Shown here: one piece after another, positions 1 to 44,246 of the stretch
Layout: each line of letters starts with the position of its first letter
How positions within the stretch are numbered: position 1 is the first letter of the stretch
Origin: Escherichia phage K1E
Sequence record: KY435490
Strand: one strand, 5' to 3'
Length of the DNA stretch: 44,246 bases
Notes under the pieces: generated by a model
What the model saw: only the letters and a program-made list of their open reading frames with translations
The model's database searches: none
Told to the model about the DNA's origin: nothing
Translations under genes and position numbers: made by a program

Positions 1-1651
1 ATACACGATTGTCATTTGCAATCTGCATCTTATAGCAGTATATATCAGTAGGGTGTCCATGACCTTTAAATGGGTCTTTATCTTTGTTGTCACCATAAGT
101 CATTGGGTTGAAATGGTTTTCACCACCAAAGATATAGTAAATGTAGCTGTCTTTAACTACAACAGAACCTACACCTACACTAGAGTTCACAATGTCACCT
201 TGATAGATTTGGTCTGTGATGTTAACCCATTCAATATCATCTGCATTCCAATTGTTTACATTCAATCGTGCATAGAAGGTACGAGGATAAGCTGCCTTGT
301 AACGATCATCTGGTGCACCTGCTTCCCATTCATTTTCTGCACGTTCTGAACCAAACATAATAAGGTCATCTCCTACTTTAGCAAAAGGTAAGGTAGTATG
401 ATGCACATTATGTGGAAATCTTAGTGACTCCCAAGTCTGACCTATATCTCTACTACGATGCAGAGAGCTTCCTAGTCGGTCGCCACGAGTACCACGAGTG
501 ATAAGGTATAATACACCGTCATAGTACTTGATGCATGGCTCTGCCGCATCTGGTTCATACTCAGCTGGTATCTGACGACGAACATAATTAGATGGGCTAT
601 TGAAAGCATCAGGGAAGTAGAAAAGACCAACTTCTCGGGGAGCTACATCACCTTGATGATAGCCCATAACAAAGCCATTGTTATCAATAGTAGCAAAGCT
701 ATGAACTTCAGTAACACGAGGTATCAGGCCAAGATCTGTCTTACGCCATGGAGACTTATGGAAGGAAGTACCCATGTGCCAATTCTTTCCAGCATTGTTC
801 AAATCAGAGGTCTGCTGATTGGCTGTAAGAACCGTGAAGTTGTCCTTATCTATAACTGTTGCAACTTTCATATCACCAGTTACACCTGTTACCGCAGAAT
901 TAGAGAAGCTAACAAAATCGCCCACGAATAATCCGTGATCAGGTACATGGATTGTTGCATAACGCTGATTTGCAGCCTTAGTGATACCACCAGTAAGATG
1001 CAGACTACGAGACATAGGGCGATCCCACAATGCACAATTGGTTAGTGCGTTCTTGGCTAAAGTACGTGTTTCAATCATGGCAAACAGACGGTTGCGACAT
1101 ACACCCATACTCATACAATGATAGTTCACTGTAGGGTAATCTGGATGCAGATCAGTTAACCACTCTGGTGTAGACCATGTTTGACCATCGTCACCAGACT
1201 TAATCCATGATACATGCAGACGACTAACACCATGACGGTCACTACCCATGTAAGGTGCATATATCACGTTCTCATATACAAACGCTTTGTCTTGAGGCCA
1301 AGCATTGTAATAAGGGTTATCCGTGATTTTATAGAGTTCACCATTGATAAAACCTTTACTCACATAGTAAAGAGGTTGACCTGCTAAACGTTCCCATACG
1401 AAGCGGGTATTATAGAATCGCTCCATATCAGGTAAAGATGATACTTTGTAAGTAGCACCAGCACCGTCAATTCTCTTACCTGAAGCCATCGCTGCATTTA
1501 CTGCATCTTGGTCGTTTGTCTTACCATCACCTTTGGCTCCAAAGTCTTTAAGCGATACAACCTCGGTGAGCTTGTCATCCAAGTTACGCCAGATTGCACC
1601 TGCTATTTTACTCTTGAATTTAACTAATGAAGAACCTAGTCTTTGAATCAT
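1..1651 (-). CDS. Endosialidase (endo-N-acetylneuraminidase) tailspike, N-terminal part; the CDS runs off the window start and continues at 43230..44014
   Basis: ATG at 1649-1651 preceded by GGAGG; translation MIQRLGSSLVKFKSKIAGAIWRNLDDKLTEVVSLKDFGAKGDGKTND... recognised from memory as K1E/K1F-type endosialidase; frame is continuous across the duplicated ends with ORF 43230..44204 (811 codons in total). Confidence 0.88.
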   Translation of the reverse strand, partial: MIQRLGSSLVKFKSKIAGAIWRNLDDKLTEVVSLKDFGAKGDGKTNDQDAVNAAMASGKRIDGAGATYKVSSLPDMERFYNTRFVWERLAGQPLYYVSKGFINGELYKITDNPYYNAWPQDKAFVYENVIYAPYMGSDRHGVSRLHVSWIKSGDDGQTWSTPEWLTDLHPDYPTVNYHCMSMGVCRNRLFAMIETRTLAKNALTNCALWDRPMSRSLHLTGGITKAANQRYATIHVPDHGLFVGDFVSFSNSAVTGVTGDMKVATVIDKDNFTVLTANQQTSDLNNAGKNWHMGTSFHKSPWRKTDLGLIPRVTEVHSFATIDNNGFVMGYHQGDVAPREVGLFYFPDAFNSPSNYVRRQIPAEYEPDAAEPCIKYYDGVLYLITRGTRGDRLGSSLHRSRDIGQTWESLRFPHNVHHTTLPFAKVGDDLIMFGSERAENEWEAGAPDDRYKAAYPRTFYARLNVNNWNADDIEWVNITDQIYQGDIVNSSVGVGSVVVKDSYIYYIFGGENHFNPMTYGDNKDKDPFKGHGHPTDIYCYKMQIANDNRV

Positions 1652-3820: not shown

Positions 3821-5717
3821 AATAAGTCCTTGAAATCCTTGCAGAAAGTGTATTTCTGCTTGCCGATTTACTCCTGTAATTCTGACCGTATACTCTTTGC
3901 TGCATAGCCACGGAAGTGTTGGTTACTCTTCGCTCAGTGCCATAATCTCCATAGAGCATTGCCCTACGGAGGTGAGGTGTGTTCATAGCATGGATGTAAT
4001 CGCGCATCTCCTGCGCTCTGAGGCGATTAATCCGTGTAACCTCGTCATAGTCTATCTGAGAAGTTAATTGCCGTATAGCGCCATACAGAGCGTCTAAGCG
4101 GTCATCGTGTCGTAGGCTGTTCTTCTCAATCGTGATGTTCGACATTTGATTGAAAAGGCTGTATGACATGCGTAGTTCAAGCGGATAGTGCTGTACCGAC
4201 TCAAAATCAGACTTGACCATCTCTGCGTTGAAGATGAGCCTGTGGGCCGCCATTAGTGGCTCTAGTGTTTCAATGATACGCAACTCTTTCTGTCCGGTGG
4301 CGTAATCTTCCTCCAGAACCACAGGCCACTCTCGTTCAAAGTATGGCTTTATAACGGCCTCAAACGCGCCATGACCAAAGTTCTTTTCAATGAATACCTC
4401 TTTAACACCTGCCTGCTTTGCGGCCTGCACAATGCGATTCAGGGACGATTCGCGGTATCCTCCCGGCACACCAAAGCACTGATACACATAAATGAATGTG
4501 CCGTGCAGGAAGACGATAGCCACACCCGTTTCATCCCCGTTCTTACCGCCACCCGCAGGGTCAATATACATAATCTTACGGGTAACAGCACCCCATTCAT
4601 AAGGACGGGCTACAGGTCTATACATAAAGTCTGTAGGCTTGTTACCATACTTAGGGGCATCGCCAATGATATTAATAGAATCATTACTCCACGTAGGCAT
4701 CACAGGGACTTCCTCTGTACCGAACGAAGTAAAGATTAGATTGTTTAGACGAAGTGGGTATCTGTCAGCATCCATCATGCGAGTGTTCAGCATAAACTGA
4801 AGCTGGAACTTAGCAGCACCTTGAGAGATTTCCTTCTCAATCAACACGTCATCATCGTACATTTCAGGTGCGCAAGGTGCACCACTGTTACCGTCTAACC
4901 CATAACCAGAGCGAAGTGCTGGGTTGTCTTTCATATCCTGCACAATCATAGGTGCAAGGAAGTCACCATAGCATTGCTCCTGCTCTACTGATGGATAACG
5001 TGCAGTCCAGATACGAACCGAGTAACCACGAGCAGGTAAGTTGTTGTAGATAGAGTTTACGTTCTGAGGAGTACCAAGGTAGATGATATCACCAAACTGG
5101 TTGATAGATTCAAACTCCTTGGTCAACTCCTCAAGCAAGGCACGGCCTGCTGCTGTACGAGCATTCTGCATCGATTCTACGTCATCTGCTAGAATAATAT
5201 CAGCACGAGCACCCTGCATACCTGCTTCGATAGAGTAACAGGATACAGAAGGTGACTTATCGCTGCCGCGTAACGTGTAGTGAATCTCAAATGCTTTGAC
5301 TGATGCACGGTCGCCAGCGTATATGTCCGGTAGCATAAACTCAAGGAAGTCTAGGCCACGGAAGATTTTCACTACCCAACCTGCGATTTCCTCTGCTCGC
5401 TTGGCGTTTTGGGATACTACCATGATACGCTTATGGGGTTCATGGATGATACGGAAAACAGTATAGATTGCTGATAGTGTAGTTTTAGCGATACCACGGG
5501 GCGCTTCGATGAGGCGATATTTATGTCCATAGAATAGAAACTTTAAAATATCGGCCTGCATACGAATCAGATGAGGGTTGCCTGCAATCAAGTTATGGAT
5601 AACTGTATCTGCAAAGAGAAGCAAACCTTCCGCCGTATACGGAAAAGTTTGCTGTAACTCCTGTAGCATCTCCCATCTGGCAAGAGCCTCCGCTTGTGAT
5701 TCTCTTGCCTTAGCCAT
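3819..5717 (-). CDS. Terminase large subunit (T7 gp19-like)
   Basis: 632 aa; ATG at 5717 after GGAGG, overlapping the upstream stop (TGATG); ATPase plus nuclease architecture. Confidence 0.93.
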   Translation of the reverse strand: MAKARESQAEALARWEMLQELQQTFPYTAEGLLLFADTVIHNLIAGNPHLIRMQADILKFLFYGHKYRLIEAPRGIAKTTLSAIYTVFRIIHEPHKRIMVVSQNAKRAEEIAGWVVKIFRGLDFLEFMLPDIYAGDRASVKAFEIHYTLRGSDKSPSVSCYSIEAGMQGARADIILADDVESMQNARTAAGRALLEELTKEFESINQFGDIIYLGTPQNVNSIYNNLPARGYSVRIWTARYPSVEQEQCYGDFLAPMIVQDMKDNPALRSGYGLDGNSGAPCAPEMYDDDVLIEKEISQGAAKFQLQFMLNTRMMDADRYPLRLNNLIFTSFGTEEVPVMPTWSNDSINIIGDAPKYGNKPTDFMYRPVARPYEWGAVTRKIMYIDPAGGGKNGDETGVAIVFLHGTFIYVYQCFGVPGGYRESSLNRIVQAAKQAGVKEVFIEKNFGHGAFEAVIKPYFEREWPVVLEEDYATGQKELRIIETLEPLMAAHRLIFNAEMVKSDFESVQHYPLELRMSYSLFNQMSNITIEKNSLRHDDRLDALYGAIRQLTSQIDYDEVTRINRLRAQEMRDYIHAMNTPHLRRAMLYGDYGTERRVTNTSVAMQQRVYGQNYRSKSASRNTLSARISRTY

Positions 5718-6016
5718 CAATCCTCCTTAGTAAATTGAATAATCTTACCACTGGATGCCTCTCGGATAGCCTTGAGGCGCTTAGATAACTTGGATTCTTC
5801 CTGCTGTGCAGCAGGTGTAGCAGTGATGCCATTATCCAGTACCCACTTACACATAGCACCAATGTCTTTACCAGAGACTAAATGCAGTGCTGCATCTGGG
5901 TCTTCTTCTATAGTGTCCAGTATTGCCTGTGCTTTCTTATTAAAGATTTTGGTAATAGCACCATGCAGGATGCCAACTTCATCCTCTGTAGCTGCATGTT
6001 TATTGTGTACGCTCAT
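5717..6016 (-). CDS. Terminase small subunit candidate (T7 gp18 position)
   Basis: 99 aa, immediately upstream of and overlapping the terminase large subunit; GGGAGG RBS. Confidence 0.6.
   Translation of the reverse strand: MSVHNKHAATEDEVGILHGAITKIFNKKAQAILDTIEEDPDAALHLVSGKDIGAMCKWVLDNGITATPAAQQEESKLSKRLKAIREASSGKIIQFTKED
5908..5925 (-). promoter_or_regulatory. Promoter-like sequence (CAATACTGGACACTATAG) inside the terminase small subunit gene
   Basis: Core -13..+1 identical to consensus; -17..-15 divergent. Confidence 0.35.
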
Positions 6017-6444
6017 GTACGCCTCCCGTTAATCCAGTACCATACGGTCTTGTGGTCTAGTCCGAAATGCCTACCAATTTTAGGGTAAGACCAACCTTCC
6101 TCCCTTAATCGTTTAGCTTCAGCAACCTTGTTGTCAATGTTTAAACAACCATAATGTGCATGTATTGTATTCTCCTGTTGAGTACACCACTCTAGGTTGT
6201 CTTTATGACAATTAGAAGGGTTGCGATCTTTATGGTTTACTATCTTATAATTGTGAGGATTAGGTACGTGCTTCCATGCTACTAATCTGTGTACTTTATA
6301 AGTTTTAGTCTTACCATCAATTCGCAGAGAAACAGTACGGTAGCCTCTTTCTCTGATAGCTCCTGCCAGCCTCTTACCCTTCTTACTTAATACAAAACCT
6401 TCTTCAGTTATGATGTATCCTGCTCTTTCAACTTCTGAATACAC
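6013..6444 (-). CDS. HNH endonuclease
   Basis: ...KIVNHKDRNPSNCHKDNLEW... HNH motif; GTG start with AGGAG RBS; overlaps the holin 3' end. Confidence 0.8.
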   Translation of the reverse strand: MYSEVERAGYIITEEGFVLSKKGKRLAGAIRERGYRTVSLRIDGKTKTYKVHRLVAWKHVPNPHNYKIVNHKDRNPSNCHKDNLEWCTQQENTIHAHYGCLNIDNKVAEAKRLREEGWSYPKIGRHFGLDHKTVWYWINGRRT

Positions 6445-19119: not shown

Positions 19120-20040
19120 TTAAAGTCCGCGAGCCATACCCGCACGGCGGCGAGCATCCAGCTTAGCCTGATACTCAGCAGCAGCTTTCTTGTCTGTACC
19201 GAAGCGGGAACCCAGCGTCATCATCTCACGGAGATACTGCTCGCGAGACAGGGGTCCATTATCCTCAGATGCGGCAGCAGGTGCAGATGGCTCAATCAAG
19301 TTTGGCTTGTCATCACCCTGTGCAGCTTTACGGCGGCTTTCTAGTTCACGCACAGCATATCGCTGGAGGTATTGGTTGCCAGACTCCATCACCGCATTGA
19401 ATGCCGTGAGTTCGTCATCGGACAGCGCTTCCAGCGCCCACGCCTCAAGACGGGACCAACCCTCTTCGCCACCAACTTCCTTAGAAACATCAGAGAAGCG
19501 CTGAGTGTTAGCTGCTTCAAGTTCCTTTGCAGCATTGGCTTCCTTCAGGAAGAAGGCTTCATTCTGCGCTTTCAGGCCAGACAAGTAGGCGTCTACTGCA
19601 AACTTGCCAAAGGCATCATACAGCTTCTGCTTGGTTGCATCGGACAATTCAAACTTGCCATCTTTGGCATAGAGTTCCTTGGCAACCTGCTTAGCATCAA
19701 TACCTTTCTCTTTAAGGCTATCAGTAACATCCTGTGGTATATCTACTGTTACTTCATATTCTCCGAAGAAGTACTGCACTTCCTCAGTGTCGGTCGCGGT
19801 ATCATCTGGCTTAGATTCACCATTCTCTCCGCCATTGTCTCCTTCTTCTGAAGGTTGTCCAGAAGCTTCTCCTCCGGAGCCTTCAGTAGATTGTGCACCA
19901 GCATTGTCATCTTGTACAGAAATGCCAGCATCAGCAGGAACATCAGTAGTAGCAGCATCAGTTGTTACCTCCTTGGTTTCTACCGGATTTTCTTCAGCAG
20001 TAGGATGAGTGGTTGACGGTTCAGTAAATGAGAAAGACAT
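19120..20040 (-). CDS. Scaffolding protein (gp9-like)
   Basis: 306 aa, acidic and low-complexity; between portal and capsid. Confidence 0.8.
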   Translation of the reverse strand: MSFSFTEPSTTHPTAEENPVETKEVTTDAATTDVPADAGISVQDDNAGAQSTEGSGGEASGQPSEEGDNGGENGESKPDDTATDTEEVQYFFGEYEVTVDIPQDVTDSLKEKGIDAKQVAKELYAKDGKFELSDATKQKLYDAFGKFAVDAYLSGLKAQNEAFFLKEANAAKELEAANTQRFSDVSKEVGGEEGWSRLEAWALEALSDDELTAFNAVMESGNQYLQRYAVRELESRRKAAQGDDKPNLIEPSAPAAASEDNGPLSREQYLREMMTLGSRFGTDKKAAAEYQAKLDARRRAGMARGL

Positions 20041-21589
20041 TACGCCTCCTTAAGTTCTTGTTGAATTACACCCGGCACGGCCTTAGCCACACCTTCTTCA
20101 AGCATCTGTGCTTGCTGTGCTTGCATCTGTGCTTCCTGTTCTTGTTCCATCTCTTCAGCCGATTTAAGGAACGGCAGTTCAGCAGAGATTTGACCACGCA
20201 CCCAATCCATATAGTCAGGCCATTTCACAGCAGCTAGGACAGGCTCAGGCCATTGTAATGGCAGTGACATATACTGAGCAAAGTTAGCCAGTTTATCCAA
20301 CTCAGCCATGCGTCCTAAAGCTTCAATACCTGTGATAATCACAGGGTCCACTAAGTCACTAGTGAAGGACTCCCCTGCCTCCAGCAGACCCCACATCGCT
20401 ACTGGCGATTGCATAGTAGTAGCAAAGAGGGAGTATACACCACCCATGTTCTGCTCAATCTCTAACGCATCTCGCTGGATTTCTACAGCAGTAACACGTT
20501 CGGCGTCACGGCGTGTCATTGTCTCCATCATGAAGACAACACCGATACGGCGAGTGTATACCTCTAGAACCGCGCTAATAGGTGTGAGGTCTGCGTACTT
20601 ACCTAACTGTACAATATGGATGTCTTCTTCTACACCAGTGACAACCTCACCAGTGCCAGAGTTAACAAAGTGGTCAACATCAGTTTGAGCACCCGGACGA
20701 ATCAGGTACTTGATATCTGCCATCAGCGCAGCACCACGGGCAACCGCTTCAGATAAGAATTGGATAACGAATAAATCACCGGAGTAATCCTCTGCTAAAG
20801 GACGACCCCAATCCTCACCATAGCTTCGCTTCCAAGTTAGCGGGATAAATGGTAGCTTTTCTGATTTGATTTTACTTACCTTACCAACAGGGATATCATC
20901 AGCAGATTGCTTGAGTTCCCAAAAACCCTCACCAAGATACTTAGCATGTGTGTACAGCTTAATGCTGTCATCTTCCTTGCATTTCTTACCTTTCAGGCCA
21001 ACCTCTACTACAGCACGTGTAGCTGGGTCAAAGGTGCGTAAGGCTTTCTCTTGCAGTAAGATAATGTCTAACAGGTCGCCATTGGTATCACGGTTAACTA
21101 CATAGTGATGCATTGGGATAGCACTGATTGCACCTTTGCTCGGCTTGTATAGCATACAGCTACCAGCAACAATAAGATGCTTGAATGCTTCCACTACAGC
21201 AGGCCGGAATTGACGTTGCTCTAACTCTTTCATTGCCCGTGTTTCCACTTGAGCGAAGATGGTAGCTAGCTCTGTCTTCTTCAGGCCACGCTGATTAAGA
21301 ACCTTCTCACCTTGTGCAGTTAAGTCTACACGGAAGAAGGAACGCTGTGCAGGGAATAGTACTTGCGCTAGCTTGTTGGCTAGATGATTAGTTGCCTGAG
21401 CACCTACACCTTGCCATCCATCTGCGAAGTCTCGTTATCACCTTTGTCATTCATCAGATAGGGCAAGGTTAATTTGGAGTAATGCTTCGCCCTATCAAGG
21501 AAAGAGCTACGTTTAGTGGAGAACTTCTCCCATAGCTTAGGTATCTTAGACCGCTTACCTCCATACTCCAAATCTGTGCTCTGTTTCAT
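20040..21589 (-). CDS. Portal protein (gp8-like), with an apparent 1-nt frameshift between about 21407 and 21434
   Basis: ORF 21404..21589 aligns to the T7 portal N-terminus; ORF 20040..21248 (frame open up to 21434) aligns to the rest (...DGWQGVGAQATNHLANKL...); total 1550 nt, not a multiple of 3. Confidence 0.85.
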
Positions 21590-24194: not shown

Positions 24195-25195
24195 CTTACC
24201 AATCCAGCGATTGTCACTATTGGTCTGCATCGGGACAATGTGCGGCACACCCTCCAGAATAACCACACAACCTAATGCTGGCTTGTATTTGGACTCACGA
24301 CCATAGGCAAATGCACGAGATGACTCATCAATCAAACAGCCGCCCTGCACAGCCCAATACTGTTCATGTGTATTACGTGCGTACTCCACAGACATCTTAC
24401 CATGCAAGTGACCACACACAAGGTTCATACGCTCATGCGCTGCATCTGCTAAGACAGAGCCAGCAGGTTGATGCTTGAATGCTACCTGTTCACCATTCGG
24501 CAACTCAAGTACGTGTGTATGTTGCCAATCCCACTGGTCGCCACCTCCATTTGGGAAGAAGACTTCACGGTATGTACGAAGATATTGCACTGGAATACCC
24601 TTGGCGCTTGCCTTACGGAAGTGCATAGAGCGTGATTAGAATGACACAGGCGCATCACAGGAAACATCTTGTGCAACTTGTGCATGAAGACACGAGCCTT
24701 CTCTAATTCCATGCCAGCACTGTCCAGATTTGGGTCCGAATCGTGGAACGATAAGGCATGTTTGTCTGCCTCATCTCCAAGATGAACCACCGTATCAGGA
24801 CGGTAACGTGCTGCCACTGCTGCAAGGAACTCTAAGGTATCTGGGTGCTCATACGGTGCATGGGTATCAGGGATTACCAGTACACTTCGATGAGGCGAGT
24901 CAGGCAATGGTACAATAGCCAAATCCTCGTAGCGGTCAGGAGTCCTGAGCTTACGCTCTTCCTTGATACGCTTATCCTCTTGCAGAAGGGTCTGGTAGTA
25001 ATCACCATTCTTCTTGGTCTTCTTGAATTGACCATGCCAGTATCGAGCCAACTGGCGGGTAATCTTCTTACCCACAGGGTGACACGATAATACCCGTGCC
25101 ATCTCGTTGTAGTTGACATTACCTTTCTCGTCGGTAGCTTGCTCGATTGCATCAAGTACCTCGGAGTCTTTGTACAAGCTGCGAAGCTTACCCAA
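24189..25195 (-). CDS. Calcineurin-like metallophosphoesterase (Ser/Thr phosphatase-like), with an apparent 1-nt frameshift near 24620..24650
   Basis: Upstream frame has DTH, GDEAD and SNH motifs; downstream frame (ORF 24189..24626) has GHLHG; probable TTG start at 25195 after AGGAGG. Confidence 0.6.
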
Positions 25196-28805: not shown

Positions 28806-28810
28806 AACCC

Positions 28811-32275: not shown

Positions 32276-32464
32276 TTAATCTCTGGCCCATGTATTTGCT
32301 TGGTGTGGCTCCCAAGTTGCCTCCTTGATAACCTGCTCACGTGTCAGACTATTCTTCTTTGCTTCAGCCATAGTTAACTGTGCAAACAGGAAGGCTTGGT
32401 TAGTGATGTGTGCTTGCAGGTCTTCGTGACCATCAAACATCTTAAGGCTGTGTTTATTCTGCAT
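32276..32464 (-). CDS. Hypothetical protein (62 aa)
   Basis: ORF only. Confidence 0.4.
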   Translation of the reverse strand: MQNKHSLKMFDGHEDLQAHITNQAFLFAQLTMAEAKKNSLTREQVIKEATWEPHQANTWARD

Positions 32465-32679: not shown

Positions 32680-32889
32680 TTAAATATTCACGTAGGTTTC
32701 TTCAGTAACAATAGGGAGATACAGTAATTCTTCACCATTCAAGAGGTGAAGACCTTTCAACCCTTGCTTACGGATAATACCTTCTATAGTGTCGGCAAAA
32801 TGCTTATTAGCTACACGTCGTGGTGTACCGTGTTCTGTGATTGCATGGTCAACATCCATGATTCGCACAGGTACATTTGGGTGCATCAT
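32680..32889 (-). CDS. Hypothetical protein (69 aa)
   Basis: ORF only. Confidence 0.4.
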   Translation of the reverse strand: MMHPNVPVRIMDVDHAITEHGTPRRVANKHFADTIEGIIRKQGLKGLHLLNGEELLYLPIVTEETYVNI

Positions 32890-33368
32890 GCTTCACCAAT
32901 CTTCACCATAGCTTGTCCTGTGGATTTACCAAGAGCACGAGTGTTAAACTGCGTAACACCTAGTGCAGTGCCACATTGCTTAATCATTTCACTTTGAGTC
33001 TTACCAGTGATTACATTGCGGCGATCTTTATTAAGTGTAGTTTTACCTTTGCCATATGCCTCTGCTAAGGTTTGAATGCCAGCACCATAGCGAAGAGGGT
33101 ATAATAGCATTTTATGCATCTGGCGGGCACACTTATCGCAAATCTCATCGTGTACGCACTTACATTGATTGCTTACCTCTCCAATCTTCTCAAGGTAGTT
33201 ATGTGCTGATTCCTTTTGATAAGCCTGTCTAATACCATTACTGTACTCTACATAGTAGCTGTTTTCACTTACATTAGTCACAGTACCACGGCAACGATAT
33301 CTACGTGAGGTTGCATTGATGTTACGAACATAATCACCTGCATTCAATACTAATTTATACATAATCAA
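32886..33368 (-). CDS. Hypothetical Cys-rich (zinc-binding?) protein (160 aa)
   Basis: CKCVHDEICDKCARQMHK cluster. Confidence 0.55.
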   Translation of the reverse strand: MIMYKLVLNAGDYVRNINATSRRYRCRGTVTNVSENSYYVEYSNGIRQAYQKESAHNYLEKIGEVSNQCKCVHDEICDKCARQMHKMLLYPLRYGAGIQTLAEAYGKGKTTLNKDRRNVITGKTQSEMIKQCGTALGVTQFNTRALGKSTGQAMVKIGEA

Positions 33369-33596: not shown

Positions 33597-35584
33597 TAAA
33601 ACTCCTGTTCATCTTCAAAGTTTGTCTCTTCTATAGTGTCCGGTAAATCAGGCACCTCTTGCTGCCTTGCTTCACCTGTATCAAATGACTTAGTACGGGC
33701 TTGTGGTTCCATCAAACGTCCGGTCTGAATGTCACCTTTAAGCATGACCTTGGTTCCAGTGTAGATACCTTGATCGCGGTCTTTGACACACGAGATGTAC
33801 GTGGTAGTCCTTTCATCAAGCGTTTCAGCTCTTGTATTACGCTCAATCCCCAAGGCGTAAGATGCCCAGAATCCGATAGCGCCTGAGCCTCGGAAGTCAG
33901 AAAGGATAACTTCGCCACCTTCTTCGTGTTGGGTACGGTTTGCCGGAGGACGTGTAAGGTGAGAGACAAGGAAAATCGTAACCGCATGTCGGTCTTTGAT
34001 AGTACCAATTCGTTTGACGCATTCATCAAGTGCACCAACCTTCCCACCAAAAGCACGCTCATCTAATTTAATCCCCGTTAAGTTATCAATGATGATATTA
34101 GAAATGCCCATAGCCTCAAACTCTAGGCAAGTTTGCTCTACCTTCTCCATAGAATAATCGCCTTCTAGGTCAGCCACAAATAGCTTTCCTGTATCAGCTA
34201 CATAATCAATGGCAGCGTTAGCTTCTTCCTCGGTGTAGTCGAACACCTCACGGTATCCGTCTTCTTTCGGGTCGTTGGTTGGCGGTAACTCAATACGCTT
34301 ATCAATCCACTTGCCGATAAAAGCACGGGACACCTTGACCATTGGGTCTTCTGTAGAAATGATGCCTACAGATTCACCGTGTTCTTCAATGAGATGTTTA
34401 ACCACTTCGCGGAGGAACTCAGTCTTACCTACACCAGAACCTGCACCTACAATGATAAGCTGGTTCTTACGAATACCTAGCGTTACCTTGTTCAGCTTAG
34501 GCCAAGGCCATGATAGTCCTTGCTCTGGACGTGCAGCCTTGAGCTTATCCCTTTGAGATGCGATAGATTTAATCTGGCTACCAAAGACTTCATCAGATGA
34601 CTTGGCATTAAACCAAGCATCAACAAACTCTTTAGCCTTGCCAGCCATCAATGCCTTGTTAGCATCTTTGCAACCAGAAGGGTATTCAAGGATATAGGAT
34701 TTGCCAGGAAACAGGCGAGCCGCTTGCTGATTCTGCTTCTGCCCCACCTCGTCGCCATCAAAACCCCATATAATCTTCTTAAATTGGGCGATGTGTTCAC
34801 GGTTCTGTACTATCTCTTCAAGGCAAGACTCACCTTTATTGACAGACCATACATGGTAAGGCTGGCCTTCCCACTTAGTACCCTTGGCAGAATCAAGGAG
34901 CATTTGCTGTGCTGCTAGTGCATCAAGTTCACCACCTACAATAAGCAAGCAATCCTTTCGTCTTCCCTTGTCTAACACGTGAGACAAAGTATTCATACCG
35001 AAAAGATCTTGCATACCAAAGAGTTTACCTAAATGACCAAACTTAAAGTCTTTAGGTAATGTGCGACACTTAGCGCCTACTAGCTCACCTTTCTCGAAGC
35101 GTGGATAGTAATGCCGTGAGACTCTACCATCTTCATCGTGTCCGACACGTACATCATACAATGCGCAAATGTCGCCGCGAATGTGTCGGGAAACAAGATT
35201 CTTACGCTTAAGCGTGAGGAACCATTCAACATCAAGTTTCCACTCTGTTTCTTGGTCTGCCCTTTCTTGCTCATTCATGACCTCCCAACGGTCTTTCATA
35301 CGCATACCACCAAGTGCGATGGCGCGTAGCTTAGGGTCGCTAATCTTCCCTTCCTTCTCCATCTCTTTAAACTGAGAAGGTGTATATTTGATATTGCCAG
35401 TAATAGGTAATTCGGTTATCTCGATGCCACCCTCTGGCTTATGGTAATAAGGCTTGCCGTTATCATGGAAGTGACCACGGTTACAGTAACCAGCGCCATC
35501 CTCAAATATCATAAGATGGTTGCCAGTAATATCATGTCCATTCTTTTGACAGGCAGGACACGGTACATTCTGAATAATAGCCAT
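33596..35584 (-). CDS. DNA primase/helicase (T7 gp4-like)
   Basis: N-terminal Cys/His zinc motif (CPACQ...CNRGH); Walker A GAGSGVGKTEF; acidic C-terminal tail ending ...EDEQEF. Confidence 0.9.
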   Translation of the reverse strand: MAIIQNVPCPACQKNGHDITGNHLMIFEDGAGYCNRGHFHDNGKPYYHKPEGGIEITELPITGNIKYTPSQFKEMEKEGKISDPKLRAIALGGMRMKDRWEVMNEQERADQETEWKLDVEWFLTLKRKNLVSRHIRGDICALYDVRVGHDEDGRVSRHYYPRFEKGELVGAKCRTLPKDFKFGHLGKLFGMQDLFGMNTLSHVLDKGRRKDCLLIVGGELDALAAQQMLLDSAKGTKWEGQPYHVWSVNKGESCLEEIVQNREHIAQFKKIIWGFDGDEVGQKQNQQAARLFPGKSYILEYPSGCKDANKALMAGKAKEFVDAWFNAKSSDEVFGSQIKSIASQRDKLKAARPEQGLSWPWPKLNKVTLGIRKNQLIIVGAGSGVGKTEFLREVVKHLIEEHGESVGIISTEDPMVKVSRAFIGKWIDKRIELPPTNDPKEDGYREVFDYTEEEANAAIDYVADTGKLFVADLEGDYSMEKVEQTCLEFEAMGISNIIIDNLTGIKLDERAFGGKVGALDECVKRIGTIKDRHAVTIFLVSHLTRPPANRTQHEEGGEVILSDFRGSGAIGFWASYALGIERNTRAETLDERTTTYISCVKDRDQGIYTGTKVMLKGDIQTGRLMEPQARTKSFDTGEARQQEVPDLPDTIEETNFEDEQEF
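33631..33648 (-). promoter_or_regulatory. Phage RNAP promoter (ATTTACCGGACACTATAG) inside the 3' end of the primase/helicase gene
   Basis: Exact consensus. Confidence 0.65.
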
Positions 35585-40425: not shown

Positions 40426-40846
40426 GTTATTAATCCTCATTTAGTTAGTTAGGTTACATTATAGGAGACTCAAGAGAATCTCCTAGGTTTAACCTATCCA
40501 GACTAAGAAGCGACTACCCATATTGTTAAAGAGCGTGGCTTGTGCTTGATAGGCTGGCTAGTGCCAGCCTTATCTTTCCTACTTAATTGCAGCCTTACAT
40601 GACTGTATCCAATGCTCCACGGCATCTGCCAAGTTGTCATACACCATAGCAGCTATTCCGTGATTCACTTCATACTCTTCGGAAGATACTTAGTTATGCT
40701 GATACTTACGCCGTTGATTGTAGTGGTAACGATTAAAGTTTCCATGATAATTTACCTTTCTGTTAGTAAGCCTATCAAGACACAAACCAGATTGTTAAAG
40801 GGCTAGGTTAGTGCCTTGATAGGCCAGCTATTAAGCTGGCTTATTG

Positions 40847-43252: not shown

Positions 43253-44246
43253 ACATCTCCTCTAATTTATCAAGACGATGGCGAGTATAGGCAGCCTCTA
43301 GGATTAGAACTTCACTATATCTCACACCGTACCTACCTTCTTCGAAGGACACAATTCCATACTTAATGGCATCTAACCCTTCATCTTCAAAAGCAGCTAC
43401 AATATCCTGAGCCAAGACACCGAAGTGTATGCTATCAAGGTTCCTCTCTGCTTCACTATTCAAACCATACTGTTTAAAACCAACCCTGCTCCAAGCCTTT
43501 AACACCTTGGTATTAATACTAGAGATACCGTACTTGTGGTCAGCATCTGAAGTTGTAACAGGGTCACTGCCTAGGTAGATGGTAGTGAATCGGTTACTAG
43601 GCCCCCCAGCAGCAAACTGGTTATCTACAGCAGGCATGATTGGTGCACCTTGGAATAGGTGCTCATTTCCGTTATAAGTGATACGCTTAGCCTTACTTGA
43701 ATTAGAGCCGTGCAAAGTTATCTGTGCACCTGAAGAGGACGAAGTCTTTTCTCCACCACAAATAATCAAACGTTGACCAGTTGGGTTGTCCTTTGGAACA
43801 GACTTACCAATAAAGCCATATTCACCTTCCATCTGCACTTCAGATCGTATATTGGAACTTGTGCTTGCTTTAAGTGTTAAGTGTCCAACTTTAGTATCCT
43901 CTGTAACAATGTTATCTGAGAAATACAAAGGTGCAGAGATATTTCGTATTCCATCAGTACCCATGAAAGTAGGTATAGCTTGACCCGGAGTTGCACCATA
44001 TGTAAACTTACGAGATACACGATTGTCATTTGCAATCTGCATCTTATAGCAGTATATATCAGTAGGGTGTCCATGACCTTTAAATGGGTCTTTATCTTTG
44101 TTGTCACCATAAGTCATTGGGTTGAAATGGTTTTCACCACCAAAGATATAGTAAATGTAGCTGTCTTTAACTACAACAGAACCTACACCTACACTAGAGT
44201 TCACAATGTCACCTTGATAGATTTGGTCTGTGATGTTAACCCATTC
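43230..44246 (-). CDS. Endosialidase tailspike, C-terminal part (same gene as 1..1651; 44015..44246 duplicates 1..232)
   Basis: Track ORF 43230..44204 is open up to the window end; frame matches the N-terminal segment after removing the 232-bp duplication. Confidence 0.88.
   Translation of the reverse strand, partial: EWVNITDQIYQGDIVNSSVGVGSVVVKDSYIYYIFGGENHFNPMTYGDNKDKDPFKGHGHPTDIYCYKMQIANDNRVSRKFTYGATPGQAIPTFMGTDGIRNISAPLYFSDNIVTEDTKVGHLTLKASTSSNIRSEVQMEGEYGFIGKSVPKDNPTGQRLIICGGEKTSSSSGAQITLHGSNSSKAKRITYNGNEHLFQGAPIMPAVDNQFAAGGPSNRFTTIYLGSDPVTTSDADHKYGISSINTKVLKAWSRVGFKQYGLNSEAERNLDSIHFGVLAQDIVAAFEDEGLDAIKYGIVSFEEGRYGVRYSEVLILEAAYTRHRLDKLEEMYATNKIS

Follow-up and report, generated by a model that had tools for sequence, protein, structure and literature searches.

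A portal gene split by a single missing base in a contig of a K1E/K1-5-like Vectrevirus: very probably a sequence error

Closest described systems

The closest described counterparts of the gene treated here are the gp29 genes of the Escherichia phages K1E (NC_007637) and K1-5 (NC_008152), which encode a portal (head-to-tail connector) protein homologous to T7 gp8. The portal is indispensable to head assembly in T7-like phages, and vectreviruses are strictly lytic and thus never pass through a prophage stage that would let pseudogenes accumulate. A -1 relation between two reading frames is known in the Autographiviridae from the capsid gene 10A/10B of T7-like phages, which is expressed by -1 frameshifting; in T7, gene 10 contains a slippery site followed by an extension that is conserved. 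Routine artefacts of T7-like podovirus assemblies include short indels within coding sequence, a reversed orientation and an arbitrary start point (Elek et al. 2023, PMC10438801).

The sequence analysed here (hereafter the window) is a stretch of DNA of 44,246 nt. Searches by megablast with the portal region and with both halves of the window retrieved dozens of Escherichia phages belonging to Vectrevirus, with identities of 92-99%, including K1E, K1-5, VEc3 and vB_EcoP_C. The phage is a lytic Vectrevirus (Autographiviridae, Molineuxvirinae), that is, a K1E/K1-5-like, endosialidase-bearing podovirus of E. coli K1. The minus strand carries all genes of the window, and the features discussed below are collected in Table 1.

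Table 1. Position of the portal gene, of the terminal overlaps and of the confident one-base deletions in the window
Feature	Position	Strand	Remarks
Whole portal (head-to-tail connector) gene	20040..21589	-	homolog of K1E/K1-5 gp29 and T7 gp8
N-terminal portal fragment ORF, 61 codons	21404..21589	-	ATG 21589, TAG 21406..21404
C-terminal portal frame	20040..21434	-	closed on the upstream side by TAA 21437..21435; stop 20042..20040
Portal lesion, AA to A	21421..21421	-	alignment with relatives; CAGAATGG to CAGATGG
gp22 metallophosphoesterase homolog, deletion	24629..24631	-	CACGGCTC to CACGCTC; 237 aa vs 335 aa repaired
Shine-Dalgarno/spacer deletion, gp15/gp15.5 homologs	28808..28808	-	TAAGGAGTTATG to TAAGGGTTATG; 5/6 references
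gp11 homolog, C-terminus deletion	32294..32297	-	62 aa vs 69 aa repaired
gp10 homolog, deletion	32889..32892	-	GAAGC[T/C]ATG to GAAGCATG; 158 aa vs 227 aa repaired
Terminal overlap, copy 1	1..232	.	identity to 44015-44246
Terminal overlap, copy 2	44015..44246	.	identity to 1-232

The portal gene as written

The portal gene is flanked by a gp28 homolog and the scaffolding gene, and the major capsid gene follows further downstream, in the order found in K1E, K1-5, VEc3 and G9 (gp28 homolog, portal, scaffold, capsid in K1E and K1-5); the records of relatives annotate it as a head-tail adaptor or connector. A T7-type portal is encoded by a single continuous ORF of about 510-540 codons, which is absent from the window as written. 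A sequence-only reading had instead described two ORFs, both aligning to the T7 portal, with a combined length of 1550 nt that is not a multiple of 3, and had placed the frame switch between the TAG at 21404 and the TAA at 21435. The start and stop codons of both pieces were verified at these coordinates, the span from 21589 to 20040 indeed leaves a remainder of 2 when divided by 3, and the alignment to relatives puts the switch at 21421.

Both pieces are recognisable as parts of one protein. Indeed (i) the N-terminal ORF is composed of 56 native codons, five out-of-frame codons (MDGKV) and the TAG, and residues 1-56 of the K1E portal match 21589..21422 with 100% identity (tblastn), (ii) residues 57-516 match 21422..20043 in another frame with 99.3% identity (tblastn), (iii) positions 1-39 of the Pfam profile PF12236 (Head-tail_con) match the N-terminal fragment with E=0.0026 and 16.7 bits, which is below the cut-off when taken alone (curated gathering score of 27 bits), and positions 51-486 match the C-terminal frame with E=4e-79 and 266.7 bits. 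Scanning the C-terminal frame for ATG, GTG or TTG gives the GTG at 21248, 186 nt into the frame, as the first possible start; it opens a 402-codon ORF, and a protein beginning there would lack about 114 N-terminal residues.

The lesion and the repaired portal

Alignment with G9, K1-5, UTI89UKE2 and VEc3 directly reveals a single gap, with identical bases around it. The minus strand has GAGACTTCGCAGAATGGATGGCAAGG in the relatives and GAGACTTCGCAG-ATGGATGGCAAGG in the window, an AA dinucleotide being reduced to a single A at the cost of one base of the Asn57 codon. The deletion is supported by all six of the whole-genome relatives used in an indel census, where it is placed at position 21420. 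Restoring the A gives a 1551-nt gene encoding a portal of 516 aa without internal stop, and only with this one base re-inserted does the window contain an uninterrupted portal ORF. The gene shares 98-99% nucleotide identity with gp29 of K1E and K1-5, and after repair the two identities to K1E gp29 given above (100% over residues 1-56, 99.3% over residues 57-516) apply to a single protein. The repaired product scores 294.6 bits against PF12236, continuously over profile positions 1-486 of 489, and aligns over its full length with solved T7-type portals (PDB 7y22, 6r21). With AA intact, the peptide across residues 50-65 reads ...GDNETSQNGWQGVGAQ..., and the SQNGWQG junction is kept in 7y22, the closest solved connector. 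Unlike in K1E and K1-5 gp29, the Asn57 codon of the window is short of one A, which leaves a 61-aa fragment and a frame without a usable start.

The deleted form is confined to this record. At least 80% of the portal gene is covered by 80 phage records and, among the matches listed (40 of 80), every hit spans 1551 nt with an identity of 97.6-99.0%. A 76-nt query around the site matched 60 GenBank phage records, of which 60 carry the intact variant and none the deleted one. A 28-mer of the deleted form was not found in IMG/VR, metagenome contigs or genome contigs, and an intact 29-mer used as control matched six IMG/VR contigs. All relatives examined have AA at the site and one portal gene that stays in frame. 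No record in the collections searched is identical to the window, and look-ups of the exact 61-aa portal fragment and of the exact scaffolding protein returned no entry. A lesion private to one record, in flanks identical to those of its relatives, is what a sequence artefact would produce.

Under the portal match in vB_EcoP_B (KY295891.1, positions 1-1128), no feature is annotated, and a portal frameshift was suspected there; this permuted record begins inside the portal gene, and no frameshift is present.

Nature of the contig and other private deletions

Bases 1-232 of the window are identical to bases 44015-44246 (232/232), which leaves a unique length of 44,014 nt. Both copies fall within the tail-spike (endosialidase) gene, whose residues 474-550 are consequently encoded twice, once at each end (tblastn). 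This end identity is an overlap of circular assembly and not a true direct terminal repeat of the phage. With identical ends inside the tail-spike gene and all genes on the minus strand, the window is thus an assembler contig, untrimmed, in reverse orientation and circularly permuted, and not a curated linear genome.

The comparison of all annotated K1E and vB_EcoP_C proteins with the window (tblastn) revealed frame changes beyond the portal in the homologs of gp10 (~32890), of the gp22 metallophosphoesterase (~24629) and of the gp43 endolysin (~2778). The indel census against the six whole relatives retained only isolated, uncompensated indels with well-conserved flanks, because divergent stretches yield paired compensating gaps in a raw census. 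It returned one-base deletions private to the window at 21420 (6/6 references), 24631 (5/6), 28808 (5/6), 32297 (5/5) and 32889 (6/6), and no private insertion with majority support. At least four private one-base deletions are thus present besides that of the portal, three of which truncate or alter the conserved genes gp22, gp10 and gp11. Lesions of one kind that run in a single direction are, again, the bias expected of an artefact.

In brief, these deletions include: that of gp22, shared by none of 64 matching records (best identity 98.8%, none identical); that of gp10, shared by none of 41 (none identical); that of gp11, shared by none of 15 (none identical), where tblastn aligned only residues 1-56 of the 69 of the query; and that at 28808, with flanks 94-100% identical, in the ribosome-binding region of the gp15.5 homolog. 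In the short-query searches, the best matches to gp22, gp10 and gp11 differ from the window solely by the one-base gap, and when one base is put back per site the three products return to exactly 335, 227 and 69 aa. Weaker candidates for private one-base deletions occur at 2778, 39647, 40545, 40686 and 41091, where fewer references align. The candidate at 2778 would alter the final ~14 endolysin residues (117 aa vs 114), and near 40686 the window lacks a 55-aa ORF which Phi100-A and PhiNW-E1 have in intact form.

The window resembles the erroneous T7-like assemblies described in PMC10438801, in which single-base indels split conserved genes, the orientation is reversed, the start is arbitrary, and the errors are visible only through annotation or comparison with relatives. 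That study stresses homopolymer sites, whereas the sites in the window are dinucleotides or non-repeated bases and are all deletions. These sites lack the homopolymer signature classically left by 454, Ion Torrent or Nanopore and point to no particular sequencing platform. No shared motif, for instance a site of Dam or Dcm methylation, was seen when the contexts of the deletions were read by eye.

In another public record, MK373773.1 (vB_EcoP_KAW1A4500), many private deletions of 1-7 nt were observed in the helicase and RNA polymerase genes, which align with the window at ~33600-34640 and ~37848. Its RNA polymerase is annotated 'frameshift' and its helicase gene is fragmented, which indicates that indel artefacts are present in other public Vectrevirus records.

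Two further differences from K1E concern homing-endonuclease genes. A 143-aa ORF (6013-6444, minus strand) with HNH_3 and HTH_23 Pfam domains, homing-endonuclease-like, separates the holin gene from the small-terminase gene; this insert is absent from K1E, where the two genes overlap. The large-terminase gene (3822-5717, minus strand) appears to be uninterrupted in the window, its two halves being in the same frame and abutting at 4550/4551, whereas its counterpart in K1E and vB_EcoP_C is divided into 40A and 40B by the homing-endonuclease gene gp40.5, for which tblastn of the K1E and vB_EcoP_C proteins gave no match in the window.

Selection

A substitution was considered private when all of at least five references agree and the window differs. 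There are 146 such substitutions in the window; those within mapped genes comprise 100 synonymous and 27 non-synonymous changes, with 97 of the 127 at third codon positions. In the restored frame, the differences between the portal and those of eight relatives are overwhelmingly synonymous (38:2 against K1E, 63:6 against vB_EcoP_C) and nearly all lie downstream of the break. Purifying selection thus persists in the restored frame, as it would if the break were an artefact. The lineage is clearly under strong purifying selection, the distal 460 codons of the portal included, and four to five real, fixed frameshifts are not reconcilable with this. Either the deletions are artefacts, or they date from just before the DNA was sequenced.

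Origin of the split

The split of the portal gene is, with high probability, a deletion error of the consensus, of base calling or of assembly and not a biological feature, a verdict that rests on the similar one-base deletions carried by other conserved genes of the contig. The consensus would have lost one A of the AA dinucleotide at 21421, so that the portal appears split, and this loss would be one among several deletion errors in the contig. The phage itself almost certainly encodes one normal portal of 516 aa (...NETSQNGWQGVGAQ...), which would be translated conventionally; we infer that the base absent from the record is present in the phage DNA. The sequence-only reading had likewise preferred an indel in a homopolymer or in the assembly to programmed frameshifting. 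The preference for an indel is upheld by the privacy of the deletion, the lack of recoding signals and the other private deletions of the contig; the homopolymer is not, since the lesion falls in a dinucleotide and no run of one base exceeds 3 within 45 nt on either side.

A genuine deletion in the sequenced DNA, that is, a defective or very recently mutated genome, is unlikely. Such DNA could, for example, be a dead-end variant from a lysate or from the environment, carried by a co-infecting wild-type helper or recovered from non-replicating DNA. The base is truly missing from the sequence as given, and the undamaged selection pattern downstream is as compatible with a very recent mutation as with an error. 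An artefact is also made somewhat less probable by the sites themselves, which are an AA dinucleotide and not a long homopolymer in the portal and non-repeated bases in several other cases, and by their distribution, all confident deletions clustering at 21.4-33 kb and none lying in the 18-kb structural block at 3.8-21.4 kb. However, the portal is essential in T7-like phages, and a genome with frameshifts in the portal, gp22, gp10 and gp11 together would be too unfit to dominate a consensus; a strictly lytic phage has no prophage state in which to accumulate pseudogenes. Furthermore, all majority-supported private single-base indels are deletions, which resembles a technical bias, and the variant occurs in no other assembly searched (GenBank, IMG/VR, metagenome and genome contigs).

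Programmed recoding, by -1 ribosomal frameshifting or transcriptional slippage within 21434..21404, has a negligible probability. The geometry of the two frames requires a -1 shift, which is the commonest programmed type and has a precedent in the capsid gene 10A/10B of T7-like phages; recoding of the single-A sequence would give a junction peptide such as ...NETSQMGWQGVGAQ... or SQMGWQG. In contrast to T7 gene 10A/10B, the portal site lacks a slippery heptamer and an RNA structure, and its split is not conserved. Indeed (i) no X XXY YYZ heptamer is present in the overlap or in the whole N-terminal ORF, in any frame, in agreement with what had been read from the sequence beforehand, (ii) the longest runs in 21380..21470 are CCC and AAA, both outside the overlap, (iii) the 111 nt that begin at the overlap fold no more stably than shuffled sequence (minimum free energy of -25.4 kcal/mol vs a shuffle mean of -27.0, z=+0.42), giving no stimulatory RNA structure, and (iv) none of the 60-80 relatives shares the two-frame arrangement, and save for the extra A their flanks do not differ from those of the window. 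Nothing relevant was found in the literature on portal frameshifting in Vectrevirus. Programmed -1 frameshifting was rejected for want of a heptamer, of structure and of conservation, and transcriptional slippage because no long A/T homopolymer occurs at the shift site; that one deletion should give birth to a recoding site without any supporting signal is implausible. It is scarcely credible, in particular, that the single A is real and that a full-length portal is made by unconventional -1 recoding at ...CAG AUG GAU GG...; if true, an essential phage gene would contain a frameshift site of a new type, with neither slippery heptamer nor stimulatory structure.

A portal made of two polypeptides (the 61-aa N-peptide and a C-terminal protein), or truncated from an internal start, is just as improbable and was rejected: the 402-codon ORF at GTG 21248 exists, but a start 186 nt downstream drops about 114 conserved residues that are covered by the Pfam profile and by all solved T7-type portals, no Shine-Dalgarno sequence was seen by eye upstream of this GTG, and no relative has such an arrangement.

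Significance

If the deletion is an error, as is very probable, its main importance lies in data quality, and new biology would follow only if resequencing upheld the base count. Automatic annotation of the contig would miss or fragment the portal gene and at least three other genes, and polishing or correction of the sequence, together with trimming of the 232-nt duplicate, is needed before this phage is used in comparative genomics, taxonomy or safety screening for phage therapy.
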